Position numbers and translations under genes: made by a program. The notes beneath the pieces were generated by a model. It ran no database searches. It saw only the letters and a program-made list of their open reading frames with translations, and was not told the origin of the DNA. From contig CAXWPL010000002.1 of NCBI GenBank assembly GCA_963666215.2, forward strand, positions 352,001-416,000: 64,000 nt of DNA. Direction: 5' to 3'. Source of the DNA: Acidobacteriota bacterium (GTDB lineage Bacteria > Acidobacteriota > UBA890 > WLXD01). This document shows, piece after piece, positions 11,808 to 46,236 of the stretch (position 1 is its first letter; each line of letters opens with the position of its first letter).

Positions 11808-11822
11808 GCGGGTACGACCGAG

Positions 11823-22020: not shown

Positions 22021-22241
22021 GGATGCTGTCGCGAACGGGCGAGCGAGACACTATACGAAATCGGCGCGGGGAATCGGTAACGAGGAGCGACCCGTGAGGG
22101 CCATGAGAACGGCGTCGATCTTGAGACGCCGCCTGGCCGGCGTCTCAGCGGCACCGTTCCGGCCGCTGGCCGTGGCGACGCGCAAGACAGCGCGTACCCA
22201 CCAGCGCTGCACCAGGGCTCGATCGTCGAGCCGTCGGGTCG

Positions 22242-23165: not shown

Positions 23166-23497
23166 AATTGGACGCGAATCTCGCTGTAGAGGCCACTTCC
23201 GCAACCCGGTACGTAAACCATCTTGCCGGCGCGCGCATGGAAATAGAAGGCGGAGCTATCCATCTGCATGATGATGCCGGTGGGTTCGCGCGAGAGTATT
23301 TTCCAGGTCATGCGTTCGGGCTGGCGGGCGAAACCATGGTTGATCTTGCCGTTGGATTTCTTGCGGTCGATCCAGTCGCTGTCGAAGGCAGGGCGCAGCA
23401 GGCTTTCCTGTTGCGACTGCGCGGGAACCGTATTGGTGAGGACGGTCATCCCGAGGGCGACAAGCAGCACGATCAACACTAGGTTATGTGACTTCAT
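23141..23497 (-). CDS. Small secreted hypothetical protein, possibly truncated
   Basis: GGAGA RBS, signal peptide MKSHNLVLIVLLVALGMTVL..VPA-Q; visibly lower GC than flanks. Confidence 0.55.
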   Translation of the reverse strand: MKSHNLVLIVLLVALGMTVLTNTVPAQSQQESLLRPAFDSDWIDRKKSNGKINHGFARQPERMTWKILSREPTGIIMQMDSSAFYFHARAGKMVYVPGCGSGLYSEIRVQLWTHQFGL

Positions 23498-29948: not shown

Positions 29949-30088
29949 TAAGGGCGATCGTAGGACCCGGATCGCCCAGCCGCGAGTGCCAACACGGATT
30001 GTCAGGCATCCTGCCGGATCCCGCCATTCCACAACCTCAGGCAAGTCTGAACACACGGAATGATCTTCCCCGCTTCGTCAAGACTCCC

Positions 30089-31567
30089 ATGAGCGCGCAT
30101 GTGAACCGCAGCGGTATCAGGCTCGTTCTCGGCCTCGCTCTCGTCTGCGCCGGGCTGTTTCTGTGTTCGGCGTGCGCTGGCTCAGAGGAGGGGAGCGCGC
30201 CTGCGTCGTCGGCCGCTCTCGGGGAGATCGATCGCCTCGTGCTCGTGACCTTCGACACGCTCCGGGCAGACCATGTGTCGGCGTACGGTTATCCGCTCGC
30301 CACCACGCCGTTTCTCGATTCGATGGCTGAAAGCGGCGTGCAGTTCAGGCGTGCCTTCGCACATTCCGCAGCCACCAAGCCGTCGCACTCCTCGATCTTC
30401 ACCTCGCTGTATCCGCTGCAGCATCGCGTGCGCAGCAACGCGCTGGTGCTCGACGAAGAGTTCGTCACGCTGGCCGAGATTCTGCGCGACGGTGGCTACA
30501 AGACAGCGGCGTTTCTGAGCATCGACGCACCCGTGGGTGGGCAGCTCGGGCAAGGATTCGAGACCTATGACGTGGAGGAGCGCGACCTCACAGTCGACGG
30601 CGCGCGGAAGGAATATCGGCACGCCGGCGAGACCATCGACGCTGCGCTGGCGTGGCTCGAAACGGTCGATCCCGATGAGCTTTTGTTCCTCTGGATTCAC
30701 GTCTACGATCCGCACAAGCCGCTGCGGCCGCCAGCCGGCCACTTCGCGACGATCAGCGTCGAGATCGAGCGCTTCGGGCCGCAAAATTTCCGCGAGCTGT
30801 TGCAGTCGCAGGGCATCGGTCCATTGAGCGACCGTGCCGTTGCCGACGTCGTCGACTACGACGCCGAGGTGCACTACGCAGACGCCGAGGTTGGGCGCCT
30901 GTATCGCGAGATGGAGGCGATGGGGCTGCAGGAAGAAACCCTCTGGGTGCTGACCTCGGACCACGGCCAGGGGCTCGGCTCGCACGGATGGTTTGGCCAC
31001 GGCAAGCAGATCTACAACTCCCAGCTGCAGGTGCCGCTGATCTTCCACACGCCCGACGGCACATTGGCTCCACGTCTGATCGAGACGCAGGTTGCTGAGC
31101 ACGTCGATCTGTTGCCGACAATCGTCGAGCTGCTCGGTGTGCCCGAAGCGGGCACCGCAGCCGTCGCCCAGCCGCTGCCGATGCAGGGCTCGTCGCTCGT
31201 GCCGTTCTTGCTCGGGCGGCGTCACGACGCCCCCAAGTGGTTCTCGTTCGGCGAGCGCAGCCGCTACATCGACGACAAGCCTCGCCAGCAGGATCGGCCC
31301 AACTACGAGGGCGGCTTCCGTTATTCGTTACAGGACCGCGAGTACAAGTACCTGCTGTTCACCGAGGGCCCCGACGAGTTCTACGACCTGCTCGCCGATC
31401 CGTACGAGGAGCACAACCTGATCGACTCTTTCGAGCACGCTGACAAGCGCGACCAGATGAGCTCGGTGCTCGCCGACATGGTCGCCAGTCTTACCAGCGA
31501 GGGGCAGGCGACATCCGTGTCGGCCGAAGACGTTGAGCGGCTCAGGAGCCTGGGCTACATCCAGTAG
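30089..31567 (+). CDS. Sulfatase-like lipoprotein with Thr at the nucleophile position and C-terminal LGY tail
   Basis: DTLRADH, ATKPSHSSIFTSLYP, HVYDPH, TSDHGQ, VPLI, YDLLADPYE, ERLRSLGYIQ*. Confidence 0.9.
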   Translation: MSAHVNRSGIRLVLGLALVCAGLFLCSACAGSEEGSAPASSAALGEIDRLVLVTFDTLRADHVSAYGYPLATTPFLDSMAESGVQFRRAFAHSAATKPSHSSIFTSLYPLQHRVRSNALVLDEEFVTLAEILRDGGYKTAAFLSIDAPVGGQLGQGFETYDVEERDLTVDGARKEYRHAGETIDAALAWLETVDPDELLFLWIHVYDPHKPLRPPAGHFATISVEIERFGPQNFRELLQSQGIGPLSDRAVADVVDYDAEVHYADAEVGRLYREMEAMGLQEETLWVLTSDHGQGLGSHGWFGHGKQIYNSQLQVPLIFHTPDGTLAPRLIETQVAEHVDLLPTIVELLGVPEAGTAAVAQPLPMQGSSLVPFLLGRRHDAPKWFSFGERSRYIDDKPRQQDRPNYEGGFRYSLQDREYKYLLFTEGPDEFYDLLADPYEEHNLIDSFEHADKRDQMSSVLADMVASLTSEGQATSVSAEDVERLRSLGYIQ

Positions 31568-31670: not shown

Positions 31671-33026
31671 ATGCATCGAAGGGGAATACCATCCGTTGCC
31701 AGTGCGACGCGCGCGCTGGTCGTGGTCGCGATTACCGTCTTGCTGACCGGCAGCCTGCCAGCCGGCGCCACCACGTACATCATGATGTCCGATGAGGACC
31801 TCGCCGACAGCTCGCCGGTTGTTGTGCGCGCACGCGTGCTCGACGCGCAGCCGTCGCCGACTGGACGTCCCTACACCGACTATCGACTCCAGGTCGAGCG
31901 CGTGGCGAAGGGTCGCGTCGCTGCCGATGCGCGGATCGTTATCAGCGTGCTCGGCGGCGGAACGCCAAGTCTACCGCAGCTGGCGGTTTGGGGCGAGCCG
32001 AGGTTCGAGGTGGGCGAGGACACGCTTCTGTTCCTGGCACCCGGCACGGCCGGGACTCCGGGCGCCTGGCAGGTGAATCACTTCGCGCTCGGCGCCTTCC
32101 GTGTGCATGAGCTCGGTGGTGTCTCGATGGCGCTGCGTTCCCTCGGCGAGATCGACGAGGTCGATAAGCCGGGCGGCGGTGAGCGCGTTGTCAGCGTGCA
32201 GCGCGCCCACCACCCTCGTGATCTGGACCGTTTCATGACCTGGGTCAAGGCGCGGAACGCCGGTGTGGACCTGCCGCAGGACTACTTCCTGGATCCGGCC
32301 GACGGAACGATGCGCAACGCCCACGACGGGTACGCTTTGCTTCTTGCCCCGTCGGGCACCCGTATCCGGTGGCCGAACTTCGACTTTGCCGCGGGAGCAC
32401 GGGTGGTGCGCTGGTTCATCGCGCGCACCCAAGCTGGCTTCCCTGGCGGTGGCCGCATCGACTTCAACCAGTCGATCAAGAAATGGGACAAGCTGAAGAA
32501 GGGCGCCATCATCGAGTATCGCGCTCCAGCGAAGCGGCGTAACGCCTTCACCTCGGGCTTCACTGCCTTCGATGGCAACAATACGATTCTGATGAACGAC
32601 CCGAACGGCGAGATTGCCAATCTGGTTGGCTGCACGGGCACGCTGGCGATTGGCGGGCCGTGGTTCATCGACGCTATCGAGCCGGAGGCCGCGAGCGGTG
32701 AGTTCCAAGCCGCGTCTGTCGGCAACTCACATCGCAAGCGGGGCAAGATCTTCCGCAACACCGTTAGTGCCGACATCATCAGCAACAATGGCCTCAAATG
32801 TTTCTACAACGCCAGTCCCAACAAGCGTAAGCATGCTCGGCAGCTCTACATGCACGAGCTCGGCCACACGTTGGGCCTGGGGCATTCGCTGGTCACGGTC
32901 GCCCTGATGTTCCCCAGCATCAGCCCGATCCCGAAAGACGTCATCAAGCCAGACGACTCGAAGGGCATCCGAATCAACGGCGGGATGCGCTACACGGAGG
33001 CCGGCGTGGCCTACAAAGCCCTGTAG
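31671..33026 (+). CDS. Secreted matrixin-type (metzincin) metalloprotease, paralog 1
   Basis: Signal peptide, HELGHTLGLGH, Met-turn ALMFP. Confidence 0.88.
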   Translation: MHRRGIPSVASATRALVVVAITVLLTGSLPAGATTYIMMSDEDLADSSPVVVRARVLDAQPSPTGRPYTDYRLQVERVAKGRVAADARIVISVLGGGTPSLPQLAVWGEPRFEVGEDTLLFLAPGTAGTPGAWQVNHFALGAFRVHELGGVSMALRSLGEIDEVDKPGGGERVVSVQRAHHPRDLDRFMTWVKARNAGVDLPQDYFLDPADGTMRNAHDGYALLLAPSGTRIRWPNFDFAAGARVVRWFIARTQAGFPGGGRIDFNQSIKKWDKLKKGAIIEYRAPAKRRNAFTSGFTAFDGNNTILMNDPNGEIANLVGCTGTLAIGGPWFIDAIEPEAASGEFQAASVGNSHRKRGKIFRNTVSADIISNNGLKCFYNASPNKRKHARQLYMHELGHTLGLGHSLVTVALMFPSISPIPKDVIKPDDSKGIRINGGMRYTEAGVAYKAL

Positions 33027-33418: not shown

Positions 33419-34771
33419 ATGGATCGAAGACGAACATCACGCGCCGCCACTTCTCTGCGAGCGCTGGCGACAATCGCCGGCCTGTCTCTGATCGTGGGAA
33501 ACCTGGCAGTGGGCGCGACGACGTACGTGATGGTGTCGGACGAGGATCTGGTCGACAGCTCTTCGGTTGTTGTGCGCGCCCGCGTGCTCGACAAACAACC
33601 GGCGCCCGACGGGAGTCCCTACACCGACTATCGGATGCAGGTGGATCGCGTGGCGAAGGGCAGGATCGCTTCCAGCGCACGTATCGTGATCAGCGTTCTC
33701 GGTGGCGGGACTGCTGGACGACCGCAGTTGGCCCTGTGGGGTGTGCCGGAGTTCGACGTTGGCGAGGAGACGTTGCTGTTCCTCTCGGGGAGGTCGGGCA
33801 GCTCTTCGGGGTCTCGAGGCGCATGGCAGGTGAATCACCTGGCCCTGGGCGCGTTCCAGGTGCACGACATCGGTGGCTCGAAGGTCGCGCTCCGCGCTCT
33901 CGCCGAGATCGACGAGATCGAGAACTCCGATGCGCGAGAGCGGCCGATGAGTGTGCAGCGGGCTCACCACCCACGGGACGCCGATCTCTTCATGGGCTGG
34001 ATCAGGGCTCGCGAGGCTGGCGTGGACTTGCCGCAGACGTATTTTCTCGAGCCTTCGGACGGTCTGCTGCGGAACATCCACGACGGGTTCACGACTTCGC
34101 GTAGCGCGTCTAACTATCGCCTCCGCTGGCCAGACTTCGATCTTCAGCGAACCGTGCCGTGGAACGTTGCGGGCTATCAGGCCGGGTTGCCTGCCGGCGG
34201 GCGGTCCGACTTCAACCAGGCGCTTCGCAAGTGGGATCAGCTCGCCAAGGCGATCATCGACTACCGCGGCCCTGCCGTACGAAACAACGCGTTGGCGAGC
34301 GGATTCACCCGCTCGGACGGCAGGAACACGCTCCTGTTCAACGATCCGAACGGCAGGATCCCTGACCTGGTGAACTGCACAGGAGCTGTGGCCGTCGGCG
34401 GTCCGTGGTACGCGGATACGTCCGCGTCGGGGTGGTCCCATACCAAGCGCCGGATGATGTTCCGCAGTATCGTCGAGGCCGACATCATCAGCAACAACGG
34501 GCTGGGTTGCTGGCTCAAGAACAGCCCGAACACGCGGAAGCACGCCCGCCAGGTCTACATGCACGAGCTTGGCCACACCCTGGGCTTGGGTCATTCGTGT
34601 GGCGATTCCAAAAGTGGCTCGTGCAACACGAAGGCAAAGGACAACGCGTTGATGCGCGCCTACCTCTCCAAAGTGCCTGCCGACGTGATCCGACCCGACG
34701 ATTCGAGAGGTGCGCGACTCAACGGTGGGCTGCGCTACAACCGGCGCGGTGTGGGCTTCGTGAGCTTGTAG
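33419..34771 (+). CDS. Secreted matrixin-type metalloprotease, paralog 2
   Basis: Same architecture; HELGHTLGLGHSCGD, NALMRA. Confidence 0.88.
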   Translation: MDRRRTSRAATSLRALATIAGLSLIVGNLAVGATTYVMVSDEDLVDSSSVVVRARVLDKQPAPDGSPYTDYRMQVDRVAKGRIASSARIVISVLGGGTAGRPQLALWGVPEFDVGEETLLFLSGRSGSSSGSRGAWQVNHLALGAFQVHDIGGSKVALRALAEIDEIENSDARERPMSVQRAHHPRDADLFMGWIRAREAGVDLPQTYFLEPSDGLLRNIHDGFTTSRSASNYRLRWPDFDLQRTVPWNVAGYQAGLPAGGRSDFNQALRKWDQLAKAIIDYRGPAVRNNALASGFTRSDGRNTLLFNDPNGRIPDLVNCTGAVAVGGPWYADTSASGWSHTKRRMMFRSIVEADIISNNGLGCWLKNSPNTRKHARQVYMHELGHTLGLGHSCGDSKSGSCNTKAKDNALMRAYLSKVPADVIRPDDSRGARLNGGLRYNRRGVGFVSL

Positions 34772-34962: not shown

Positions 34963-36298
34963 ATGAGTCAGCGATCCTCTCTTGTTGTCCTGGGCGTTTT
35001 GACCGCTTGTATCGTGCTCGCCGTCCTGACGGGGGGAATGCCGGCGGCGGCCACGACGTACGTCATGATGTCGGACGAAGACCTGGCGGACAGCTCGCCG
35101 GTTGTGGTCCGTGCGCGCGTCCTGGACAAGCAGCCGGCGCCAGATGGGCGTCCGTACACCGACTACCGCCTGCAGGTTGAGCGCGTTGCCAAGGGTCGGA
35201 TCGCCGTCGACACGCAGATCGTAGTCAGCGTCCTCGGCGCGGGGGTGCCGGGTCGGCCGCAGCTCTCGTTGTGGGGCGTGCCGGAGTTCGAGCCAGGCGA
35301 GGAGACGTTGCTGTTTCTCGACGGCTCCTCGGCTGGTACGCCAGGCTCATGGCAGGTGAACCACCTGGCCCTCGGGGCGTTCCGTGTTCTCGACATCGGT
35401 GGAGTGCAACTCGCCCTACGCGCCCTGGGAGAGATCAACGAGGTGGAACATCCCGATGCGGGCGACAGGCCCATGAGCGTTCGGCGCGCCCACCATCCGC
35501 GCGATCTCGATCGGGTCATGGGTTGGATCAAGGCGCGAGATGCAGGCGTTGATCTGCCACAGGACTACTTTCTCGAACCGGCGGAAGGTCTCGCGCGAAA
35601 CGCCCACGACGGGTACACCACCTTGAGCACGGCCTCCAGCTATCGCGTCCGGTGGCCGGACTTCGATCGCGGCAGCATTCTCGTTTGGTTTATCGCTCGC
35701 AACCAACCTGGCCTGCCGGACGGCGGACACAGAGCCTTCAACCAGGCACTGAACAGGTGGGACGATCTTGCCAATGCGATCATCGACGTGTGGACGCCGG
35801 CCCCAAGGAACGACTCGCTGGTGTCGGGTTTCTCGGCCAGCGACGGAAACAACACGCTCCTGATGAACGATCCCAACCACAGGATCCCCGATCTGGTGAA
35901 CTGTACTGGAGCGCTGGCCGTCGGCGGCCCCCTGGCACGTTGACTCGGAGGCGGCAGGGTGGTCGCACATCAAGCGCGGCATGATGTTCCGCAATATCGT
36001 AGAGGCCGACATCGTCAGCAACAACGGAATCGCCTGCTGGTTCAGGCAGAGTTCGAAGAAGTGGATGCATGCGCGGCAGCTCTACATGCACGAGCTCGGC
36101 CACACGTTGGGGCTCGGGCACTCGTGTGGTGATTCGGCTAGCGGGCCGTGTGACACGAGGTCGGAGAGCAACGCGCTGATGCGGGCGTCGACCTCGAAGA
36201 CTCCCTCCGACGTGATCCGAGCGGACGACTCGAGAGGGGTGCGATTCAACGACGGGCTGCGCTATACCCGTCGCGGCGTCGGATTCATCGATCGCTAG
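34963..36298 (+). pseudogene. Matrixin-type metalloprotease paralog 3, split by a +1 frameshift
   Basis: Removing one C from the C5 run at 35928-35932 gives GGPWHVDSEAAGWSHIKRGMMFRN, collinear with paralog 2; may be a sequencing error. Confidence 0.8.
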
Positions 36299-37119
36299 AT
36301 CGTGACGCCGAACCGGCCCTTGAGCGCGAAGGCGATGACGATCGTCAGAATGAAGAAGACGATCAGCCAGTGCGTCTCGAAGCCGAACAGGCCGACCTCT
36401 CGGTCGGGGTAGTCGACGCTGATCGAGGTCACCGACGAGTCGGCGGGTAGTGACGGCTCGGCCGGATAGAGCAGCTGATCGACGAACCGCGGTGCCAGCC
36501 GATCGGGCGAACGTCGAACGACGTTGTTGCCGACATCGATGGTCTTGGTCACCGTCTCACCGCCGATGCGTATCGGGAGCTCGTAGCTGCCCGGCTGGCT
36601 GGCCACGATACGGAAGGCGAGCTCACGTACGGCGGGAAACCAGGAGATGCTGCTGTCGGCGCCGAGCCCCTCCGGGAAGTCGACCTCCACGTCGGGACGC
36701 GTGCTGCCGGCCGACTCCGCCACGGTGATCTTCATCAGCACCGGCTCGCCAACCTTCAATCCCTCGTAGCCGTAGTGGAACTGCAGCTGCGCAATCACCA
36801 GCACAAACGGCAGCATCATCCAGAACATCGGGATGAGGTTGAGACGCATGTAGTTGAGGTTGTGCCTCAGGATGTCCCACTGGGCCCGGAAGATGGCGCG
36901 GATGTCATCGTTGAACAGGCGGATCTCGAACAACCCCGCGGCGATCTTGGCCTTTACGGCGGTGACCGCGTCCTGATTCGACGTTGCCTTGTAGCCCAGC
37001 AGCATGCCGATCGAGGCGATCACCGACACCACGCCGAGGCCGACCATTGGATGCAGCCCCCGGAAAGGCAGCAGTAGCAGGTCAAAGAGCGTGCGTAGGA
37101 GGCTGTTCAAGAGAGACAT
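36295..37119 (-). CDS. Three-TM membrane protein resembling DUF106/EMC3/TMCO1 (Oxa1 superfamily)
   Basis: N-terminal amphipathic helix, TM1, helical hairpin (SNQDAV..KAKI..RAQWDILRHN), Met/Pro-rich TM2 (LIPMFWMMLPF), beta-rich loop, TM3 starting HWLIVFF; family call from topology only. Confidence 0.6.
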   Translation of the reverse strand: MSLLNSLLRTLFDLLLLPFRGLHPMVGLGVVSVIASIGMLLGYKATSNQDAVTAVKAKIAAGLFEIRLFNDDIRAIFRAQWDILRHNLNYMRLNLIPMFWMMLPFVLVIAQLQFHYGYEGLKVGEPVLMKITVAESAGSTRPDVEVDFPEGLGADSSISWFPAVRELAFRIVASQPGSYELPIRIGGETVTKTIDVGNNVVRRSPDRLAPRFVDQLLYPAEPSLPADSSVTSISVDYPDREVGLFGFETHWLIVFFILTIVIAFALKGRFGVTI

Positions 37120-37155
37120 TCGTTCAGATACCGTGGATACCGTTCGGATGGGTGA

Positions 37156-37419
37156 GATCTCCCTTATTACTTGAGATCGAAGCGACGGGCGGCTCTGAGG
37201 AGCTAGGAAATGTAGCCCAGGCCCTGAAGCTTCTTGCGGATGTCGTCCTCTGAGTCGGCCTCCTCGAGAACCGCGAGCTCCTTTTCGAGCGCGTGCGTGA
37301 TGAACTCTTCGACCGACGAGTAGCCGGCGATGTTGGCGTACTTCTTCACCTTCGCGATGAGGTCCTTGTCGAGCTTGACCCTGCCGCCTCCGAACATGAT
37401 GTGATCTCCCTTATTACTT
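37156..37419 (-). repeat. Identical 17-bp direct repeat AAGTAATAAGGGAGATC (37156-37172, 37403-37419)
   Basis: Direct reading; the copies flank the 64-aa gene. Confidence 0.9.
37203..37397 (-). CDS. 64-aa RHH/CopG-like protein with LGY tail
   Basis: RVKLDKDLIAKVKKYA..GYSSVEEFITHALEKEL, then SEDDIRKKLQGLGYIS*; strong RBS. Confidence 0.85.
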   Translation of the reverse strand: MFGGGRVKLDKDLIAKVKKYANIAGYSSVEEFITHALEKELAVLEEADSEDDIRKKLQGLGYIS

Positions 37420-37432
37420 TCGCGCTAGTCAA

Positions 37433-39512
37433 CTATTCTGCGGGTTCGGGCTCGAGCGTGACCGGCGTGCTGCCGTCGGGGAACCCCTCGATACCAAACT
37501 CGGCGAGGAGGGTCGCGGCCAGATTCTGCAACGACGTCGCCTGACGGCCGAGCCGCTTGTTGGTGAACAGAACGCCCGGCACCGTCTCGTTCCTGATCCA
37601 TGATGTGGTCGCCTGACCAGTCGTCGAGGTTGTCGCCGATCCACTCCACAGGCATGCCGCCGAGCGCCGACGACCCCGAGCATGCCGCCGAGCGCCGACG
37701 ACCCCCGCGTGTGCCTTTCGCGAAGCCGACGATAATGTCGGGTCCGATCTCGAGGTGGCCACGGTCCTTGAAGTCGCGCTCCCGCACGTAGACGCGGGTG
37801 ACGGCCGGTTGGCCGGTCACGGGGTCGATTGCCGCAAGCAGGTCTCGCTCGAGCTGCTCGATCAACTCCTGGCGGTCGCCGGGCGCTACCACGCCTCGCG
37901 GCTCGCGGCCTCGTAGGTTCAGGTACAGCCCGCTGATGCCGAGCCCATAGGCCTGCGTGCGCCGCCAGTTGACGCCGGTCCAGAAGTCGGCCACCGGCAG
38001 CTTCGTACGGCGCTCGAGCTCCATGTATCCGCTGTCGACGAGCCAGGTGTTCAGATGGAACGAGCGTCGCCAGCTCGTGAAGCCGTGATCCGACATGACG
38101 ACGAGAGTGATGTCGTCGCCGGTTTCGTCGATGTAGTCGAGTGTACGGCCGACCATCTCGTCGAGGCGCTCGTACGCCTGGGGAATGGTGTCGGCGTAGG
38201 GCTCGTGCAGCTCGGGAACGTGCGCCGGATGGCCGGGGTCGAGCGTGACGCCCCAGAGGACGTGCGAGAGCTGGTCGAGGTTGCCGACGTAGTAGAAGAG
38301 GAACTCGCCCGTCCAGTTGTCGAGCATCCAGTCGTACTGCAGCCGATTCTCGCGGCCGATGATGCTCGCCTGGTGGACGAACTCGCCCGTGTCGAACAAA
38401 TCCCACTGGATCGCCTTGGTGTCCTCGGGCATCTCCTGGGTGTAGAAGCGCCCCGTGGCCTCGGCCATCTCCGCCGCGAAGCCCTCGGGGCTCGAGATCG
38501 GCATCGCGGGCGCCATCGGATCCATCTGGATCGGGCTCACGTAGAGCTCGAACTCGGGCTCCACCGACTTGAGGTAGAAGCGCACGATGCCGCTGATTGA
38601 TTGCAGGTAGGGGATGAGCTCGAACTCGACCTCGACCCAGTCGCTCCACTCGCCGGCCTCGAGCAGCAGCTCCTCATCGCCAACCACGAGCTTGGTGCCG
38701 CCGACGTCCGCGTCGATGTAGGCCGTGAATTCGCTCACGAGCTCTTCGGGCTCGATCAGCAGCGGGTGCGGTGGGCCGTACAGGGCACCCTCGAAGACAC
38801 CGTCGACGACGTCGGCCGGGTAGATCTTGCCGCCCGAGATGTTGCGGTTGAACTGGGTACGATCGGTGGTGAAGAAGTGGAACTCACCAGAGGTGCCGCG
38901 GAGGTCGGGCGTGCCCATACCGGAAAGCTCGTAGGTGCCGACTCCGACCGGCGGGAAGTTGGCCGGCATACGAATCATCGTGCTCTCGAAGCCGTTTTCT
39001 TCGAGCTGCTGCCAGAACGTGTCGCCGTATCGGGCGAGCTCGATGCCGCCGCCCGACAGGGGCAGCCGCCACTTGCCGATGTCGATCGTGCGGCCGACCG
39101 GGATCTCCTTGCTCGTGGCTTGATACGGCGTTCCGAACGGGAAGGGTGAGTCTTCGACCTCTCGGTGCAAGAAATCGAATATGCCGTGGCCGCCGCTATC
39201 GAGGCCGGTGATGAAGTTCGACCAGGCAACTGGACTCTGCGGCGAGTACGCGGTTTCGAGCGGCGAGAAGCCGCCTTGCTGGGCGACACGCGCCAGGTTC
39301 GGGAGGCGGCCCTGCTCGATGAGCTCGGTTGTGAACTCGTGGTCCATGCCGTCGAAGCCGAGGACGATCATGCGCTGACGTGGCGATTGGGCGCCCGCCG
39401 ACGCTGCTACCAGCGAGCTGGCGACAACCGCGACCGCAGGTGCCGTAAGTGCCGTAAGTGCCAGCAGGCCGATGGAACCGAGCAGAGTCCGAGTACGCGT
39501 TCGGAGGGTCAT
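37433..39512 (-). CDS. Exported alkaline-phosphatase-superfamily (NPP/type I phosphodiesterase-like) protein; apparent frameshift near 37590
   Basis: Signal peptide ..AGA-Q, VLGFDGMD, PQSPVAWSNFITG, DQLSH, MSDHGF, WSGDH; natural tail ETVPGVLFTNK..LAATLL lies in the frame ending 37433. Confidence 0.88.
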
Positions 39513-41746
39513 GGCGCGTTGTCTCCGGCATTCGAAAGCGTCAAGGCCTTCCCGTCCATATGAGGTGGCGGCTGCAGGCCGAACTGCTCGAGCGCGGTGG
39601 GGGCGATGTCGATGAGCGACGGCTCGTCTTCTTGCATATCACGGTTGCAGAAGATCACGCCCGGCACCAGCCGTGGATCGACGCAATGGTCACCGCTCCA
39701 CGCCTTGACGTTGTCCTCGAACAGCGGTGCCGAAACAACGCCGGTGGCGCAGTCCCACGAGGTTCGGTAGCCGCGGTTGTAACCGATGATGAACTCGGGG
39801 GCGTTCTCGAGATAGGGGCCCTGGTACAGCTTGGCGGTATCGAACGCTTCGATGATCGCCACCTCGCCGGTTTCAAGGTCGATGAGGCCCTCGAGCTTGG
39901 CGGCGATCTCTTCCTTGAGCGCCGCGACCTCGGTCTTGTGGACGATACCCTGACCCTCGCGGTCCTTGATGTTGAAGAACATGCCCGACAGGCCGAGGCA
40001 ATAGGCCTTGGTCTGTGACCAGTCAACATCGAGCAACCACTCGGCTTTTCCTGCCTCGGCGCCCGACTCGGTCGCGGTCGGCTTCAGCGTGAGGTAGCCG
40101 TTGTCGAGTAGCCATCGATTGAGGTTCACACCGCGGCGGAAGGAGGCGAAGCCGTGGTCCGAGAGCACCATCAGTAGGTCGCCGTCGCGCAGCTTGTCGA
40201 TGACCTCGCCGACCAGCTCGTCGTTGCGGATGTAGAGCTCTTCGATCGTGTCGTGGCAATCGCTTCTGTCGCCATTGCCGTTGGTTGCAGCGCCATTCCG
40301 GCTGTTCCCACCGGCCGCCAGCGCAGCCGGATGATCGTTCTCCAGATACCGCCAGAACATGTGCTGGATGCGGTCGGTGGCGTCGAACACGCACACCAGG
40401 CAGCCCTTGTGCAGGCGGTCCCAGGCCGCCCAGAACATCTCCTTGCGCTCGTCGTCGATGTCGAACGTCAGCTGCTTGAAGTGGCGGTCCTCAATGACCT
40501 TCTCGTTGAGCGCCCAGGTGTCTTCGGCGAGGCCGAGCGTCGAGTACTTACCCTGTAGCTTCGACAGATAGATCGCGTAGTAGTCGGGATGCGAGATGGG
40601 CATCGCCGGCTTTTCCGGATCCAGAGCGATGGGTGTCATGTAGAGCGAGAAATGAGGTTCGAGCTCGGTGATCATGATCCGGACAATACCCCTGACCTTG
40701 ACGCCCGGGACGGCGGGGAATGCCAGCTCGGTCCAGTCAGACAGCTCGTTGACCTTCAGCGATAGGTCCTTGTCGCCGACCTTGAGCTCGACGGTCCCAG
40801 TGGTCACATCGAAGGAGCCCGAGAGCGGCAGCTCGAGGGGCGGCGTTCCCACCCGCATGGAGTTCTCGGGGCCGGTGAGCGTGCCCTCGAACGCGTTGCC
40901 GTTGACTGTCACCGGCATGCGCATGCCGCCCTCCTTGAACTTGCCCTCTTCGGGCTTGTTCGTGAAGAGCAAGAACGTGCCCTGTGTCCCGAGTAGGTCC
41001 GGCACACACATCGCTGAAAGCTGGGCTCCATAGAACCGGTCGGGAGGGAAGGTAATCGGCACCCGCAGCACAGTGCTCCAGATGTTGTGCTCGCCGAGTA
41101 TCGTCCAGAAGGGCTTCGATTTGCGCAGTAGCCGCAGCTCAGGCTTGTCTCGCGGAATCTGGAACGGCCCGAGCTTGAGGTACCTGTCGACCGAGCCGAT
41201 CTTGGTGGACGACAGCACGGGCAGGTAGGTCCGTCGGTCGCGGTCGAGAAAGTCGTAGATGTTGTGGCGCGCCGGGTGGCTGCCGGTGGAGAACGACGAC
41301 CAGGCCACCGGAGAGATCGACGGGAACGTGGTCTTGAGCGGCTTGTAGGAGCCCATCTCGCCGAGCCGCTTGAAGTTGGGCAGCTTGCCCTCGGCCATGA
41401 AACGGTCGGTGAGCTGCGGGTCTTGCCCGTCGAAGCCCACGACGATCATCCGCTTGATCTTCGGGGTCGCCCTCGTTCGCCTCGTGAGCGCCCGCCACAG
41501 CATGCGGAACGGCCAGATCAACAGCGACAGGAACGCCACCAGCATCGTTGTGAACAGCACCATGAAGCTGGTCACGAAGGCGAAACCCGCTCCCGGGCCA
41601 ACGTAGGCCTCGGCTACCGTTGGCGTTAGCGTAGCGGCCGCCATTAGCGCGAGCGTTACGGCGATCGCAACGCGGCGAGCGCTTGCGCTGCCGTCTTCGA
41701 TTCGGATTCGACTAGATCGCCCTGTCACAGCGTTCGCACCGGCCAT
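39509..41746 (-). CDS. Membrane-anchored alkaline-phosphatase-superfamily (NPP-like) protein with N-terminal YVGPG motif
   Basis: Signal-like segment ending AEA-YVGPGAG, TM helix, basic stretch, VGFDGQD, PSISPVAWSSFSTG, DRIQH, LSDHGF, WSGDH, DIAPT. Confidence 0.92.
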   Translation of the reverse strand: MAGANAVTGRSSRIRIEDGSASARRVAIAVTLALMAAATLTPTVAEAYVGPGAGFAFVTSFMVLFTTMLVAFLSLLIWPFRMLWRALTRRTRATPKIKRMIVVGFDGQDPQLTDRFMAEGKLPNFKRLGEMGSYKPLKTTFPSISPVAWSSFSTGSHPARHNIYDFLDRDRRTYLPVLSSTKIGSVDRYLKLGPFQIPRDKPELRLLRKSKPFWTILGEHNIWSTVLRVPITFPPDRFYGAQLSAMCVPDLLGTQGTFLLFTNKPEEGKFKEGGMRMPVTVNGNAFEGTLTGPENSMRVGTPPLELPLSGSFDVTTGTVELKVGDKDLSLKVNELSDWTELAFPAVPGVKVRGIVRIMITELEPHFSLYMTPIALDPEKPAMPISHPDYYAIYLSKLQGKYSTLGLAEDTWALNEKVIEDRHFKQLTFDIDDERKEMFWAAWDRLHKGCLVCVFDATDRIQHMFWRYLENDHPAALAAGGNSRNGAATNGNGDRSDCHDTIEELYIRNDELVGEVIDKLRDGDLLMVLSDHGFASFRRGVNLNRWLLDNGYLTLKPTATESGAEAGKAEWLLDVDWSQTKAYCLGLSGMFFNIKDREGQGIVHKTEVAALKEEIAAKLEGLIDLETGEVAIIEAFDTAKLYQGPYLENAPEFIIGYNRGYRTSWDCATGVVSAPLFEDNVKAWSGDHCVDPRLVPGVIFCNRDMQEDEPSLIDIAPTALEQFGLQPPPHMDGKALTLSNAGDNAP

Positions 41747-41750
41747 CCGT

Positions 41751-43085
41751 TCAGCTCGCTTTTGGTTCGTTCTGGTCGTCGCTCTCGTTTCTCTCGTGGT
41801 CTCTCTCACATTCTCTCTCCAGCAGACCGGCCAGCTCGCCGATCCATAAGTCGCCGTCGATGGGCTGCGGCGAGAGCAAGAACGCGTCGTCGTAGGTATG
41901 CATTCCGACGAGGTCGGTACGATCGAAGGTGCGCGTCGCCCTGGGCGACGCCTTGAGATCGAATCCCGGCTCGGCCAGAACGACCAGATCCGGACCTTTC
42001 GGAACCCGCGGGCCCGCGTAGATCGCGCTAGCGTCGTAGACTTCGCGAATCGCAGCCGCGCCATCATACCGCAGCTCGCGCAGCCGGTTTTGTAGCTCGA
42101 ACATCAGTGATTTCGCCTCTCCCGGCGCCACGCTGCCGCGCGCGAAGCGGCCGCGACGGTGGATGTAGATGCGGCCGGGATCGAGGGCGAAGGCGCGCGA
42201 ACGCCCGGAGATGGTCTCGAGTCCCAACTGCGGCTCCGAGTCGAACTCCAGGTAGCCGTTCTCCTGCAGCCAGTGGTTGAGCTGGACCTCCTGGCGGATG
42301 GCGCAGAACCCATGGTCGGACAGCAGCCAGGTGCGCTCGCGACAATTCAGCCGATCGAGGATCTCGCCGATCAGCGCGTCGACGGCGCGATGGTAGTCAA
42401 GCGCTTGTTCATGCCGTGGGTGCGAAGGGTCGACGAGGGAGTCCCAAAGGTAGTGATACAGGCGGTCGGTTCCGGTCACGACGATCTGCAGAAAGTCCCA
42501 GTCGACCGACTCCGAGAGGTGGATGAGGGCTTCGCGCCGCGTACGCAGCGACTCGTCCAGCTGTTCGAACAACAGGTCGTGGTCGGTTCGGCAGCGCCCG
42601 GTGTCGATGTCGATGCGGTAGCCCATGCGCCGTAATGGCGCCAGGTGCGTGAGGGGCTTGATTGACTTGGCGAGATCGATCGCCACGAACCCCGAAACGA
42701 TCGCGCCGGGGATGGAGCGTGCCGGGTAGGTTGCCGGTTGGTTGAGCACGACGGATGTGAGACCGCGAGCGCCGAGTCGGTCCCACAAGGTGTCAACCTG
42801 AAGGTCACGGAAGCTCGGAAACCGTAGCTCGTAGGTGTCGACATCGATGTCGGTAAAGCCGAAGATGCCGTGCGTGCCGGGGTCGACGCCGGTCATGAAG
42901 CTCGACCAGCTCACCGACGAGATCTCGGGCAACGACGCGCGGATCTTGCGTAACGAGCCTGATGGGCGAGACTCGATCAGCTCCGCGAGCCGGGGCATGA
43001 CCCCGGAGCCGGTGAGTTGCAGAATCAACCCGTGCGGCACTCCGTCGAGCCCGATGACGCAGGTCCGTCGTCTACCTCCGTTCAT
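41751..43085 (-). CDS. Cytoplasmic alkaline-phosphatase-superfamily (NPP-like) protein
   Basis: No signal peptide; IGLDGVP, PEISSVSWSSFMTG..HGIFGF, DRLYH, LSDHGF, GMHTYDDA. Confidence 0.92.
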   Translation of the reverse strand: MNGGRRRTCVIGLDGVPHGLILQLTGSGVMPRLAELIESRPSGSLRKIRASLPEISSVSWSSFMTGVDPGTHGIFGFTDIDVDTYELRFPSFRDLQVDTLWDRLGARGLTSVVLNQPATYPARSIPGAIVSGFVAIDLAKSIKPLTHLAPLRRMGYRIDIDTGRCRTDHDLLFEQLDESLRTRREALIHLSESVDWDFLQIVVTGTDRLYHYLWDSLVDPSHPRHEQALDYHRAVDALIGEILDRLNCRERTWLLSDHGFCAIRQEVQLNHWLQENGYLEFDSEPQLGLETISGRSRAFALDPGRIYIHRRGRFARGSVAPGEAKSLMFELQNRLRELRYDGAAAIREVYDASAIYAGPRVPKGPDLVVLAEPGFDLKASPRATRTFDRTDLVGMHTYDDAFLLSPQPIDGDLWIGELAGLLERECERDHERNESDDQNEPKAS

Positions 43086-43095
43086 GGGCCCGACT

Positions 43096-43695
43096 CTACA
43101 GGTAGCCCAGCGCTTGCAGTCGCTGCTTGATCGCCTCTTCCTCTTCGGGCGTTGTGTCGTCGTCCTCGCCGGGCGGGACGTAGCCGAGCAACTCGAGCGA
43201 GGTGAGGATCTTGTCGAGGCTCTGTTGCAGCGTCTCGGCCTCGGTATCGCACACAATCTCGGGCTTCAGCGGTTCTTCGTACGGGTCCGAGATCCCTGTG
43301 AAGTTCTTGATCTCGCCGGCAAGCGCCTTCTTGTACAGGCCCTTGGGGTCGCGCTCCGACAGGTGCTCGATTGAGCAAGTCGCGTAGACCTCGACGAAGT
43401 TGTCCATGCTCTCGCGCACCTCGTCACGCACCGATCGGTACGGCGAGATGGCCGCCGAGATCGCCACCACACCGTTGCGCGACAGCAAGTTGCAGACGTA
43501 GCCGATGCGTCGAATGTTGATGTCGCGGTCTTCCTTCGAGAACGTGAGGCCCTTGCTGAGGTTGGTGCGGACCTCGTCGCCGTCGAGGATCTCAACCCGG
43601 TGGCCGCGCTCGCGGAGTAGGGGAGCGAGCGCGTTCGAGATCGTCGACTTTCCGGCTCCTGAGAGACCGGTGAACCAGAGGGTGAAGCCTTGCAT
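43096..43695 (-). CDS. cysC: Adenylyl-sulfate (APS) kinase with extra LGY tail
   Basis: WFTGLSGAGKST, LDGDEVR, ISPYR, RDPKGLY, FTGISDPYE; tail EEEEAIKQRLQALGYL*. Confidence 0.97.
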   Translation of the reverse strand: MQGFTLWFTGLSGAGKSTISNALAPLLRERGHRVEILDGDEVRTNLSKGLTFSKEDRDINIRRIGYVCNLLSRNGVVAISAAISPYRSVRDEVRESMDNFVEVYATCSIEHLSERDPKGLYKKALAGEIKNFTGISDPYEEPLKPEIVCDTEAETLQQSLDKILTSLELLGYVPPGEDDDTTPEEEEAIKQRLQALGYL

Positions 43696-43771
43696 GACGT
43701 ACTCCGAAAAGGGTGCGGGGTTGAGCCTGTGGCGGGAATCTTGCGGCTTGCGAAGCCGAACCGGCAGCTGG

Positions 43772-44947
43772 CTAGGCCTTGACGGCGGCCGGCTGCTCGA
43801 TGCCCTGAAAATGCTGCTTGAGGATCGCGGCTATTTCCGGCCGGGTGAACTCGGCCGGTAGGTCCTCGCCGTTTCCGAGCATCTCGCGGATGTTGGTGCC
43901 GCTCAGGAACACGTGGTCTTCCTTGCCGTGCGGGCAGGTTTTTGTCGATCCCATGTTGCCGCAGGCGTTGCAGAAGAACGCATGGTCGAAGAAGAGCGGC
44001 GTGATGCCGATCTCCAACCGATCAAACTCCTGGAAAATCACGTGAGCATCGTAGGTGCCGTAGTAGCCGCCAACCCCAGCGTGATCGCGACCCACGATGA
44101 AGTGTGTGCACCCATAGTTCTTGCGCACGATGGCGTGGAATACGGCCTCACGCGGGCCGGCGTAGCGCATCGCCGCCGGCAGAATCGACATCGCCACGCG
44201 ATCTGGCGGGTAGTAATTGTCGAGCAGAGCGAGGTAGCACTTGAGGCGCACGTCGGCTGGAATGTCGTCCGACTTGGTCTCGCCCATGATCGGGTGGATC
44301 AGCAGCGCATCGACCATCTCGAGGGCGCACTTCTGTAGGTACTCATGTGCCCGGTGGATCGGGTTACGCGTCTGGAATGCGGCCACGCTGTTCCAGCCCT
44401 TGGCCTTGAACAGCACACGCGTCTCGCGCGGGTCAAGCCGGTAGCGTTCCAGCTCGTCGTCTTGCGGCCGCTCGATCACCGTGACCTGGCCGCCGAGGTA
44501 AACATCGCGGGAACGGCGCAGGTAGCCAACTCCGGGGTGCGCGTCGTCGGTTGTACGGAGAACCTTGAGCGCTTCGCGCTCTTTGTCGGGGGTGTAGATG
44601 TTGGAGATCTCGATCATGCCGAACACGGTGCCAGCCTCGTCGACGAGCGCGGCCTCGGTATCGGGCGCCAACCTCTGCGCTTCCTCGGGGCTGCAGCTGA
44701 GCGTGATCGGGATCGTCCAGGGCAGGCCGTTGGCCAGCCGGCCGTTCTCACAGACGCTGTCGTAGTCCGACCGACCCAGGAAGCCGGTGAGTGGGCTCAG
44801 CGCTCCGGTCGCGATCATCTCGAGGTCGCTTGCCTCGCGGCGGTTCATTACGATCTCGGGTAATCCGCCGAGTCGAGCGCGGAGCGCCGTAGTTTCGTCG
44901 TCGGTTGCGAAGCGGCTTACCAGGCGGCCGCCGTGGGCTTTGATCAT
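43772..44947 (-). CDS. sat: Sulfate adenylyltransferase (ATP sulfurylase)
   Basis: [36 protein letters not shown]. Confidence 0.98.
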
Positions 44948-45162
44948 CAGAGGTACCCCAGGTTTTCGAGTTTCTTACGAATCGCACTGAGCTCGTCGGG
45001 TGGCAGATCGTTGTTCCCCGGCTCTGGGCTCAGGGTGCCGACGAGGTCGCGCAGGACGAACACGATGAAGTCTGTCGGCGAGCTGAAACCGGATCCGTCG
45101 ATGACCTCGACGAGCCGGTTGTACAGCGGCCGCGGAATCTTGATGCTGACGCGATCGCTCAT
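44947..45162 (-). CDS. 71-aa RHH/CopG-like protein with LGY tail
   Basis: [30 protein letters not shown], then [15 protein letters not shown]; stop overlaps the sat start. Confidence 0.88.
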
Positions 45163-45206
45163 GTTTGGACAGCGGATTTGCCCGCGTCGGGCGGGCTTGG
45201 CGGACC

Positions 45207-45235
45207 GATTGGGTCCTGATTGGGTCCTGATTGTA
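45207..45235 (-). promoter_or_regulatory. -10 box TACAAT overlapped by 11-bp tandem repeats (candidate operator)
   Basis: Minus strand TACAATCAGGACCCAATCAGGACCCAATC, about 45 nt upstream of the RHH gene. Confidence 0.5.
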
Positions 45236-45378
45236 CCCCAATTAGAGCCGGGCGCTAGTCAGCTAGTCACCCCTCGCAAGAAATTTAATCGCCGGCGCGC
45301 TGTCCAGAAGCCACGCGAGCGTCGCCCCAGTTGCGACCCTACGGATCGGATCGCCCTATTGCGCCAGCTGCAGCCCAG

Positions 45379-46236
45379 CTAGAAGTACTTCGACGCGTGT
45401 CGCAGCAGGTCGTCGTGGACCACGCTGTTCGTCGCCAGCAAACCGCGCATGTTCTCCAGCGCGTTGGCGTCGGTCGCGTCGTAGCGGATCGGCGAGCCGT
45501 CGAAGTCGGTCATGCGGCCGCCGGCCGCGGCGAGGATCGCTTCGGGGGCGCAAGCGTCCCATAGCTTGGTTCCGCGGCTCGGGTGAAGGTACAAGTCGCA
45601 GTCTCGAGTCGAGATCCGTCCGATCTTGAGGCCGACGCTGCCCGACTTGACCATCTGGGTGATCCCCACCTCGTCGGCCATGCGCCGGACGGTCTCGGGG
45701 GTATGGGAGCGGCTGACGATCAGCTTGAGGGCGCTGAGCTCCGACGTGCCGCTCACTGCGAGCGGCGAGACCTCGGTGGCACCGTCGGCTGCCGAAATTG
45801 ATCCGCGGCGAACCACCTCGGCTCCCTCGCCAACGACGCCGCGATAGAGGGTGTCGGTGGCAGGCTGGTAGACAACGCCCATCGTGGGCCGACCGTCGAC
45901 GCACAGACCGATCATGGCGGCGAACTCGTCGGTGTGGTTGATGAACTCCTTGGTGCCGTCCATGGGATCGACCATCCAAACGCGGTGCTTGCCGACGAGC
46001 GCGTCCGTGTCGATCGATTCCTCTGAGAGGACGCCGTCTGAGGGGAACGCGGCGTTCAGGCGCGAGACGATGAGGCGGCTGGATGCGTGATCGGCCTCGG
46101 TAACCGGATCGGCCTCGCCCTTGAGCTCGACGGTGTAGTCGCCGCGGTAGTAGCTCATCAGGACGGCGCCTGCGTCGCGCACGATCTCCTCGATCGTGGT
46201 GAGCTGCTGGCGCTGTAGGCTGGCAAGCGTGGACAT
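45379..46236 (-). CDS. cysQ: 3'(2'),5'-bisphosphate nucleotidase (CysQ/inositol monophosphatase family)
   Basis: PVTEAD, LSEE, VDPMDGTKEFI, VSRSH, GSVGLK, WDACAPEAIL; next to sat-cysC. Confidence 0.88.
   Translation of the reverse strand: MSTLASLQRQQLTTIEEIVRDAGAVLMSYYRGDYTVELKGEADPVTEADHASSRLIVSRLNAAFPSDGVLSEESIDTDALVGKHRVWMVDPMDGTKEFINHTDEFAAMIGLCVDGRPTMGVVYQPATDTLYRGVVGEGAEVVRRGSISAADGATEVSPLAVSGTSELSALKLIVSRSHTPETVRRMADEVGITQMVKSGSVGLKIGRISTRDCDLYLHPSRGTKLWDACAPEAILAAAGGRMTDFDGSPIRYDATDANALENMRGLLATNSVVHDDLLRHASKYF

Follow-up and report, generated by a model that had tools for sequence, protein, structure and literature searches.

A conserved array of sulfate-activation genes, alkaline phosphatase superfamily enzymes and a putative Oxa1-like membrane protein: a candidate envelope sulfation system of Acidobacteriota

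Gene content of the locus

The locus described here is an array of nine head-to-tail genes on the minus strand (36295-46236) of a 64,000 nucleotide stretch of Acidobacteriota DNA, hereafter the window (assembly GCA_963666215.2, contig CAXWPL010000002.1, positions 352,001 to 416,000). It joins genes for the supply of 3'-phosphoadenosine 5'-phosphosulfate (PAPS) to three enzymes of the alkaline phosphatase (AlkP) superfamily, two small proteins and a membrane protein. An earlier reading of the letters without database searches (the sequence-only reading) had reported nine co-oriented genes, several of which overlap or nearly abut, and both the position and the packing are confirmed: the stop of sm1 overlaps the start of sat by 1 nt, the gaps are 10 nt from cysC to AlkP1 and 4 nt from AlkP1 to AlkP2, and AlkP2 and AlkP3 share an ATGA overlap. 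Pfam and NCBIfam name six of the nine genes, i.e. the CysQ-like protein, Sat, CysC and the three PF01663 enzymes AlkP1, AlkP2 and AlkP3, while sm1, sm2 and mem match no Pfam or NCBIfam family at threshold. The genes, with the evidence for each assignment, are the following:

45379-46236, minus strand, CysQ-like 3'(2'),5'-bisphosphate nucleotidase, 285 aa (PF00459)
44947-45162, minus strand, sm1, 71-aa ribbon-helix-helix-like (RHH-like) protein with an LGY-type tail (homologs and tail; no family at threshold)
43772-44947, minus strand, Sat, ATP sulfurylase, 391 aa (PF01747 and PF14306)
43096-43695, minus strand, CysC, kinase of adenosine 5'-phosphosulfate (APS), 199 aa, with an LGY tail (PF01583)
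41751-43085, minus strand, AlkP1, putative cytoplasmic soluble enzyme of the COG3379 type, similar to nucleotide pyrophosphatases/phosphodiesterases (NPP-like), 444 aa (PF01663)
39509-41746, minus strand, AlkP2, 745 aa, signal peptide, transmembrane (TM) helix and NPP-like domain (PF01663, in two pieces)
37433-39512, minus strand, AlkP3, putative exported NPP-like enzyme, frame-broken in the window (PF01663)
37203-37397, minus strand, sm2, 64-aa RHH-like protein with an LGY tail (conserved place and tail)
36295-37119, minus strand, mem, 274-aa DUF106/EMC3/Ylp1-like membrane protein (sequence match to Mj0480)

The AlkP3 gene of the sequence-only reading is real and its product belongs to PF01663; its frame is not intact in the window, where it breaks near 37590, after ..WSGDHIMDQE, downstream of a 24-30-nt tandem duplication at ~37655-37715. 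Public sequencing runs served solely to check this frame. Four letters at 37590 are missing from the near-identical contigs of three runs from three studies (X8, X11 and X2), and 24 letters at 37681 are missing in X8 and X11. Once the four letters are removed, an open frame of 691 aa with the conserved C-terminus is restored, which suggests that the break is an error of assembly or polishing, or else variation between strains, and no feature of the system.

Conservation and modular structure

A scan of species-representative genomes with AlkP1 yielded 572 relatives, and the 80 best loci were retained with 10-kb flanks. In 52 of these best 80 loci the genes for AlkP1, AlkP2, AlkP3, sm2 and mem follow each other on one strand and in fixed order; 20 further loci are too short to judge and eight are long enough and incomplete, one of them with the set inverted next door. 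Such an array from AlkP1 to mem is far beyond chance. The AlkP1 loci come from Acidobacteriota, Aminicenantes, a deltaproteobacterial metagenome-assembled genome, Eisenbacteria, Desulfaltia and others. Among the same 80 loci only L001-L007, the seven closest relatives, show all nine genes in the order of the window, and sat or cysC lies within the 10-kb flanks in 13.

The array of the window is composed of two modules joined to each other: module A, with the CysQ-like protein, sm1, Sat, the tailed CysC and AlkP1, and module B, with AlkP2, AlkP3, sm2 and mem. Module B occurs without AlkP1 (G141, G371, G193 and G015), in genomes of at least five families, and in three of the four such loci fetched PAPS genes adjoin it (L090-L092; none in L089). 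A divergent fused sat-cysC gene lies by module B in G371, and sm1-cysC lies directly upstream of it in G015. In G193 (L091, 12557-16059) the genes flanking module B encode a permease of the TauE/SafE family, CysN fused to CysC, and a protein of PF01507 that is probably CysD, so that a second, non-homologous type of ATP sulfurylase appears to have been recruited beside module B.

Module A without module B (G024, G133, G178 and G119) is composed of sm1, sat, AlkP4, the tailed cysC, a protein of the polymerase and histidinol phosphatase (PHP) family and AlkP1. AlkP4, also a cytoplasmic enzyme of PF01663, shares 26% identity with AlkP1. In Aminicenantes carrying module B and AlkP1, sm1-sat-AlkP4-cysC form a separate operon elsewhere in the genome. 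On one Aminicenantes chromosome (L085 of G001, 3668-12094) this operon is followed by an NAD-dependent sugar epimerase/dehydratase and two UDP-glucose/GDP-mannose dehydrogenases, which hints at a sulfated uronic-acid glycan as the product. The conserved neighbours of the module in Aminicenantes (HD and HEAT proteins, an ADP-forming acyl-CoA synthetase, a rhamnosidase, a thioredoxin, aminotransferases, a nitroreductase, OmpH and RhaA) were considered as a functional clue and discarded, being lineage-specific synteny only.

Genome-wide co-occurrence and sulfotransferases

Co-occurrence was counted in a sample of 401 genomes of the phylum, as raw counts among kin genomes. The mem gene was found in 119 of them, with a single match in nearly all of the 119. 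APS kinase is present in 113 of the 119 genomes with mem versus 129 of the 282 without, and four of the six mem genomes devoid of it are only 55-81% complete. Orthologs of AlkP1 occur in 73 of the 401 genomes, 71 of which carry APS kinase and 25 of which do not carry mem. The functional tie of the AlkP genes to PAPS supply, which the sequence-only reading had proposed for this cluster, is well supported because the linkage recurs in several phyla, because APS kinase co-occurs with mem and because CysD and CysNC lie beside module B in G193.

A small canonical sulfotransferase of about 200 aa (PF13469/PF00685) shows a similar distribution, with 77 of the 119 mem genomes versus 16 of the 282 others. 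Its distance to mem is no more than 12 kb in 50 of the 77 and no more than 900 bp in 17, and it is found beside module B in G141, G371, G193 and G015. The mem genomes are distributed as 15 with both AlkP1 and this sulfotransferase, 33 with AlkP1 only, 62 with the sulfotransferase only and nine with neither.

None of the nine proteins of the array carries a PF00685 or PF13469 domain or is a reductase. The absence of a canonical sulfotransferase on which the sequence-only reading had built thus holds inside 36295-46236, and it does not hold for the window, which carries one at 22242-23204, nor for the genome, nor for most genomes with module B. The host keeps its ortholog of the small sulfotransferase linked to module B on contig C5 (52% identity), and at least four further sulfotransferase-like genes are present in the host genome, that of the window included. 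As a canonical family accompanies module B and has an ortholog in the host, the AlkP enzymes need not be sulfotransferases, and the argument that they must be, for want of a canonical one, falls.

The AlkP family enzymes

All three enzymes exceed the PF01663 gathering score of 23, with 124.4 bits for AlkP1 (E 1e-35), 92.1 for AlkP2 (E 7e-26) and 99.4 for AlkP3 (E 4e-28). The nucleophile of AlkP1 is Ser56 in EISSVSW, which aligns with the nucleophile Thr of Xac NPP, in agreement with the serine noted at this position in the sequence-only reading. Residues D14, S56, D207, H211, D257, H258 and H396 are invariant in AlkP1, and a Ser or Thr at position 56 and the same Asp/His positions are kept in AlkP1, AlkP2, AlkP3 and AlkP4. 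By their position (strand-TGTD-xxx-H), D207 and H211 would be metal ligands.

No PDB sequence matched AlkP1 at E 0.01, and its profile yielded weak matches to NPP and the phosphonoacetate hydrolase PhnA. The AlphaFold2 model of AlkP1 (mean predicted local distance difference test, pLDDT, 90.2) was compared by Foldseek, a comparison of folds covering AlkP1 only. PhnA was closest (1ei6, E 9.7e-15, template modelling score, TM-score, 0.61/0.66), followed by NPP1, NPP3, NPP6 and Xac NPP at E 1e-11 to 1e-14; these nearest folds share TM-scores of ~0.6 and 14-18% identity with it. The family is large, with at least 4296 proteins at E<=0.001 among the 8000 candidates scored, and carries the Joint Genome Institute (JGI) name 'predicted AlkP superfamily phosphohydrolase/phosphomutase'. 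A role of AlkP1 or AlkP4 as phosphatase of 3'-phosphoadenosine 5'-phosphate (PAP) was set aside, a CysQ-like or PHP-type phosphatase being encoded alongside. The host genome as a whole contains 45 PF01663 match segments.

The sequence-only reading had placed catalytic domains on both sides of the membrane, and signal sequences support this placement, with AlkP1 and AlkP2 predicted to be cytoplasmic and AlkP3 exported. No signal peptide was read in the sequence of AlkP1. The N-terminus of AlkP2 is composed of a signal peptide, the stretch A|YVGPGAGFAF, one TM helix and a basic stretch, after which the NPP-like domain with a large insert begins. This layout is kept in about 70 homologs, with an AxA-type site, a nearly invariant YIGPGAGFAF, a hydrophobic helix and a basic stretch before the first catalytic strand, and by the positive-inside rule the catalytic domain of AlkP2 would be held at the membrane and face the cytoplasm. 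AlkP3 shares with AlkP2 the insert of about 250 aa, and its homologs carry Tat (RRDFLK), lipobox or Sec signals, so that AlkP3 is taken to be exported. The YVGPGAG motif is found in AlkP2 only within this genome, and the idea of the YIGPGAG anchor as a general device was therefore dropped.

The genes for PAPS supply

Sat carries ATP-sulfurylase and PUA_2 domains and matches NF003166 with 535 bits (cut-off 387). CysC matches NF002059 with 270 bits (cut-off 244) and TIGR00455 with 222.8 bits (cut-off 138.7). Each of the two genes is present once in the host genome. The match of CysC to NF002059 stops at residue 173 of 199, and the remainder is a C-terminal extension of 26 residues (43099-43176) terminating in ..EEEEAIKQRLQALGYL (..IKQRLQALGYL). 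In the cysC of L084/L088 (G005) the C-terminal third is Arg/Gly-rich and out of frame, which looks like an assembly frameshift.

The first gene had been called cysQ. Its product belongs to the inositol monophosphatase family (Inositol_P, PF00459, E 8.8e-54); its best NCBIfam match, the CysQ equivalog TIGR01331, gives 181.5 bits and stays under the cut-off of 228.8. The family assignment thus stands, the equivalog assignment does not, and we use the name CysQ-like for what is likely a PAP phosphatase, judged by its family. In other lineages its place is occupied by the PHP-family protein, whose best NCBIfam match is a 3',5'-nucleoside bisphosphate phosphatase, below cut-off. A PAP phosphatase of either type in these operons is what would be expected if PAPS is spent as a donor.

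APS/PAPS reductase (PF01507) was found neither in the cluster, as the sequence-only reading had said, nor in the whole genome (91.7% complete), with a control positive in 14 of 14 reference genomes; PAPS is therefore not for assimilation of the CysH type. PF01507 also includes CysD. Matches in other genomes cannot be read as CysH as such, and that of G193 sits beside CysNC.

The small proteins and the LGY tails

The LGY tails on sm1, sm2 and CysC, previously noticed in the window, are real and conserved. The sm2 protein, always located between AlkP3 and mem in complete modules, terminates in ..SEDDIRKKLQGLGYIS (..IRKKLQGLGYIS), and its tail ..EEEIKKKL[KQ]GLGYI[SG] is nearly invariant over about 55 loci, with the tails of sm1 and CysC following the same pattern. 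Homologs of sm1 upstream of sat or cysC keep the tail (L001-L007, L016, L085, L087, L092, L093 and L095). The N-terminal halves of sm1 and sm2 show, by eye, a strand-helix-helix pattern; sm2 matches RHH_1 (PF01402) with 13.5 bits (E 0.072), under the threshold of 20.5, and sm1 gives no match to an RHH model.

In CysC, residues L193, L196, G197 and Y198 are invariant in 14 tailed proteins. The extension is present in 17 loci with AlkP1 and absent in seven loci without AlkP1; in 12 of these 17 AlkP1 is at most 120 bp away, and in three it is located behind the PHP gene. A scan of the host genome for the tail motif gave nine matches, i.e. the three of the cluster, two in internal, unrelated frames and four at the C-termini of sulfatase-like AlkP proteins with the tail ..L[ER][EQ]LRALGY[LI]Q:

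G000 C1:7906-9780, sulfatase-like AlkP protein with tail
G000 C2:724757-727480, sulfatase-like AlkP protein with tail
G000 C3:388161-389624, sulfatase-like AlkP protein with tail
G000 C3:413971-414771, sulfatase-like AlkP protein with tail

The N-termini of the first three were read by eye as signal- or lipobox-like; the fourth is a fragment without N-terminus, whose tail is identical to that of the first. In L095 (G178, 677-9472) module A is followed by a sulfatase-like and a COG3379 protein, both LGY-tailed, with a Wzx/MOP-type flippase gene in between. AlkP3 of L020, L024 and L067 carries ..EEDRAALASLGYIE directly after the lipobox, so that the motif also occurs in the periplasm, at an N-terminal linker. 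The AlkP fold is the common denominator of all these cases, and the tails are supported as functional elements.

Complex prediction was performed in three runs for AlkP1 with CysC residues 160-199, each given as an alignment. The interface score ipSAE was 0.90, 0.91 and 0.91 (best control 0.13), with a partner pLDDT of 67-69 and at least 74% of the contacts common to the runs. The ipSAE mark is reached by 58 of 80 solved complexes and by two of 110 mismatched pairs, counts which are rough, custom alignments having been used. In the predicted complex CysC residues 188-199 meet mostly invariant residues of AlkP1, including I55, D207, R208 and H211; as I55 lies beside the nucleophile and the other three belong to the metal site, the model puts the tail into the catalytic cleft. 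The prediction supports, and does not show, binding of the CysC tail to AlkP1.

The membrane protein mem

Residues 9-121 of mem match residues 11-126 of Mj0480, an archaeal YidC-like protein (PDB 5c8j), with E 2.2e-5. The score of mem against PF01956 (EMC3_TMCO1) is 12.5 bits, below the gathering score of 27.1, and sub-threshold matches to this family (E<=1) were found in 20 of 35 mem homologs, the best at 4.9e-5. Many relatives are labelled 'DUF106 family' by JGI and a few have a precomputed PF01956 assignment. The EMC3-like character claimed for this protein by the sequence-only reading is thereby retained. Anghel et al. 2017 (PMC5868721) describe DUF106 as an archaeal and eukaryotic family.

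In the AlphaFold2 model (pLDDT 92.8), with helices at residues 24-46, 49-68 plus 73-116, and 251-266, mem shows three TM helices, the first followed by a long coiled coil, and in the TM2-TM3 loop an immunoglobulin-like (Ig-like) beta sandwich, which resembles the Ig folds of filamin and S-layer proteins. A Foldseek search with the whole model returned matches to the Ig-like domain only and no Oxa1-type folds, so the link of mem to Oxa1 is drawn from its sequence. The family counts 3403 representative clusters with a cut-off of E<=0.001 and 1253 with one of E<=1e-30, and the clusters listed for it in the Atlas are from Aminicenantota, Acidobacteriota and Planctomycetota.

Proposed function

The safest statement is that the array belongs to a conserved envelope system dependent on PAPS. 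We go further, with no more than middling confidence, and propose that the two fused modules constitute a system for envelope sulfation with PAPS as donor, the AlkP enzymes having a role in processing and not necessarily in the sulfation step itself. In module A, Sat and CysC would make PAPS and the CysQ-like protein would remove PAP, tied to the cytoplasmic AlkP1, with the tails of CysC and sm1 docking in the catalytic clefts of AlkP-type domains. Module B would provide the anchored AlkP2 with its catalytic domain at the inner face, the exported AlkP3, sm2 as a third tailed RHH protein, and mem as an Oxa1-superfamily (DUF106/EMC3-like) protein with a periplasmic Ig domain. PAPS from module A would serve to sulfate a membrane-bound intermediate at the inner face, by a canonical sulfotransferase, which we think performs this step in most lineages, and possibly also by AlkP1. 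Transfer or cleavage of phospho- or sulfo-esters on the intermediate may then be carried out by AlkP2 inside and AlkP3 outside, before and after crossing, while mem might insert the N-out anchor of AlkP2 or aid a polar head group across. The tails would link the PAPS enzymes and the RHH proteins to the AlkP clefts as tethers, plugs or carriers.

Several points weigh against the proposed sulfation system. Its evidence is made up of genes and predictions, i.e. gene content, conservation, co-occurrence, active-site residues, signal sequences and the predicted tail-cleft complex, and from these we infer the topology and substrate, what mem does and each step of the chemistry. The inward-facing AlkP2 is deduced from one argument, the positive-inside rule. 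The co-occurrence counts are among kin genomes and uncorrected for kinship, and every count includes one unpublished genome, G054. In the host the small sulfotransferase lies outside the cluster, on contig C5, and with one query it was not found in 42 of the 119 genomes with module B. Genomes with module B tend to have either AlkP1 or the small sulfotransferase, so that AlkP1 could itself be the PAPS user, and a tail predicted to dock in a catalytic cleft would be no less in keeping with a substrate or carrier than with a tether. In the loci examined the module neighbours hold no consistent clue to a sulfated product.

Alternative explanations

The explanation put forward in the sequence-only reading, a sulfo-relay in which the AlkP enzymes act as non-canonical sulfotransferases, accepting the sulfuryl group from PAPS on their Ser nucleophile and passing it further, is weakened by these findings and we regard it as unlikely. 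In a sharpened version the invariant Tyr of the LGY tail is an aryl-sulfate station, on a route from AlkP1 through AlkP2 and AlkP3 to a periplasmic acceptor. The tight linkage of cysC and AlkP1, also in genomes without module B, speaks for it, as do the sm1-sat-AlkP4-cysC-PHP-AlkP1 operons, which have a PAP phosphatase and no canonical sulfotransferase, and the catalytic domains on both sides of the membrane. A tail predicted at the catalytic centre (I55, D207, H211) with its invariant L193, L196, G197 and Y198 would fit a relay. The partly complementary distribution of AlkP1 and the small sulfotransferase (33 and 62 genomes with one, 15 with both) counts in the same direction, although it may merely mirror two large clades. 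A relay has, however, to face the canonical sulfotransferase, which accompanies module B in 77 of 119 genomes and of which the host has a copy, and the other sulfotransferases held by all five of the complete Aminicenantes genomes checked; no membrane route for a protein-bound sulfate is evident, and the literature search found no precedent for sulfuryl transfer by PF01663 enzymes. If true, it would be new enzymology. A long shot within it is that the tail Tyr is a covalent sulfo-carrier on CysC, sm1 and sm2, from which the AlkP Ser would take the aryl sulfate, the mature N-terminal Tyr of AlkP2 (YIGPGAG, periplasmic) and the EMC3-like protein being the station to AlkP3 and the acceptor. Such a carrier would be the first protein-borne sulfuryl relay, with the first AlkP-superfamily sulfotransferases, and would assign a function to a bacterial DUF106/EMC3-type protein for the first time.

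Two further explanations involve the tails. AlkP1, and AlkP4 elsewhere, may be a pyrophosphatase or nucleotide phosphoesterase held by the tails on Sat and CysC in a sulfate-activation metabolon, where it draws the unfavourable reaction of ATP sulfurylase forward or trims APS, PAPS or PAP; module B would then be a phosphoester system of its own under shared regulation. This we consider rather improbable: a tail filling the cleft would block a hydrolase and not feed it, a PAP phosphatase (CysQ-like or PHP) is already encoded, and the association of module B with APS kinase and sulfotransferase is left unexplained. It draws on the AlkP1 fold, closest to nucleotide pyrophosphatases, on the tails of CysC and of the Sat-coupled sm1, and on the position of AlkP4, between sat and cysC in G001, G002, G005, L016, L063 and L096 and directly upstream of cysC in L093 and L095. 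Fusions of APS kinase, ATP sulfurylase and pyrophosphatase occur in some eukaryotes. Alternatively, sm1 and sm2 may be RHH repressors of their operons and the LGY tail a pseudo-substrate plug, which keeps the AlkP enzyme off or the repressor sequestered until substrate arrives, with the CysC tail reporting PAPS supply. The RHH-like N-terminal halves (strand-helix-helix, RHH_1 E 0.072), sm1 at the head of the sat operon, tails in cis on many AlkP-family enzymes of different subfamilies and the docking predicted at the catalytic cleft agree with this, against which the RHH assignment is below threshold; we hold it to be quite improbable. It concerns control and not chemistry, and is compatible with any of the other explanations. 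That housekeeping PAPS genes merely happen to lie beside one AlkP set of an AlkP-rich genome is very improbable indeed. The 45 PF01663 segments, the scarcity of sat and cysC in the flanks (13 of the best 80 AlkP1 loci) and a single cysC that must also serve the other sulfotransferases of the genome would be in keeping with mere adjacency, but the linkage recurs in distant lineages in varied arrangements, the tail motif is common to CysC, sm1 and sm2, and both the genome-wide co-occurrence and the predicted complex point to a link.

Comparison with known systems

A literature search, covering few subscription journals and no supplements, found no account of the system, of the tail motif or of an AlkP-superfamily sulfotransferase, and no name or paper for the four-gene core of module B, whose mem protein counts 3403 clusters and is present in about three in ten of the sampled genomes of the phylum. 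On this basis the core with its coupling to PAPS would be a new kind of system built from known folds.

With NPPs and phosphonoacetate hydrolase the enzymes share the PF01663 assignment at threshold, the nucleophile position, the Asp/His ligands and, for AlkP1, the nearest fold. They differ in having Ser in place of the nucleophile Thr, Ser or Ala in place of the Asn beside it, and in AlkP2 and AlkP3 the insert of about 250 aa, as well as in their partners, i.e. tails, RHH proteins, an Oxa1-like protein and PAPS genes; we know of no such partners for NPPs. LtaS, EptA/MCR-1 and OpgB also have the AlkP fold with a nucleophilic Ser or Thr, and they deliver polar head groups to acceptors in the envelope, beyond the cytoplasm. 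As members of the PF00884 sulfatase branch they contain membrane domains of several helices and take the group from phospholipids. They are a working analogy for AlkP3; here the enzymes are of the PF01663 type, lie one on each side of the membrane by prediction, and are linked to PAPS.

Sulfate-activating genes are clustered with the user of PAPS in nodPQ-nodH and raxPQ-raxST. The likeness is that a canonical sulfotransferase accompanies module B in most lineages and that a PAP phosphatase is included. The AlkP2-AlkP3-sm2-mem core and the cytoplasmic AlkP1 and AlkP4 have no counterpart in those clusters, and in the host genome the sulfotransferase is unlinked. With Ylp1 (Mj0480), EMC3, TMCO1 and Get1, mem has in common the match to Mj0480, the weak PF01956 similarity and, in the model, a predicted three-TM core with a coiled coil after TM1; unlike Ylp1 and EMC3 it is bacterial, carries the Ig-like domain in the TM2-TM3 loop, is fixed in an AlkP operon and stays below the Pfam threshold. 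The Dlt and Pat shuttles, to which the sequence-only reading had compared the system, share only the idea that a group activated in the cytoplasm crosses the membrane by means of a small carrier and membrane partners, and Pfam and NCBIfam scans found no homolog of a Dlt or Pat component in the cluster.

The combination of PAPS supply, NPP-like enzymes predicted on both faces of the membrane and a putative bacterial Oxa1 protein of the EMC3/Ylp1 branch is unexpected, as is a short C-terminal motif, ..L..LGY[IL], common to AlkP-family enzymes and their partner proteins and predicted to sit in the catalytic cleft. Should the product be a sulfated lipid or glycan, the system would represent a new route of envelope sulfation in abundant, mostly uncultured bacteria of soil, sediment and sea.

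Other genes of the window and of the host genome

Three sulfotransferase genes of the host genome and their neighbours are located as follows, the last four within L097 (G000:C5:884000-903000) and numbered in it:

22242-23204 of the window, minus strand, canonical sulfotransferase (PF13469/PF00685), adjoining an IS481-family transposase (21015-22154, minus strand)
L097 11784-12428, small sulfotransferase
L097 5798-7186, 462-aa sulfotransferase
L097 3654-5435, squalene-hopene cyclase
L097 2643-3644, HpnH-like radical SAM/DUF3463 gene

The small sulfotransferase of the host is thus 6-8 kb from the squalene-hopene cyclase, the HpnH-like gene and the 462-aa sulfotransferase, with unrelated genes in between, and its product could be a sulfated lipid such as a hopanoid. 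A transposase similar to that of the window is found near this region (L097:1200-2204).

Downstream of the cluster the plus strand of the window carries, at 29915-31567, a PF00884 sulfatase with an SGSH_C domain. As it is only 5 kb off the cluster end, sulfotransferase, sulfatase and PAPS genes are all found inside 25 kb. Between the sulfatase and mem are three tandem paralogs, also on the plus strand (31671-33026, 33419-34771 and 34963-36298), which encode secreted proteins with a C-terminal matrixin-like (PF00413) zinc protease motif HELGHTLGLGHS. The third of them is in two frames (34963-35943 and 35981-36298), and its end overlaps the end of mem, on the opposite strand, by 4 nt.

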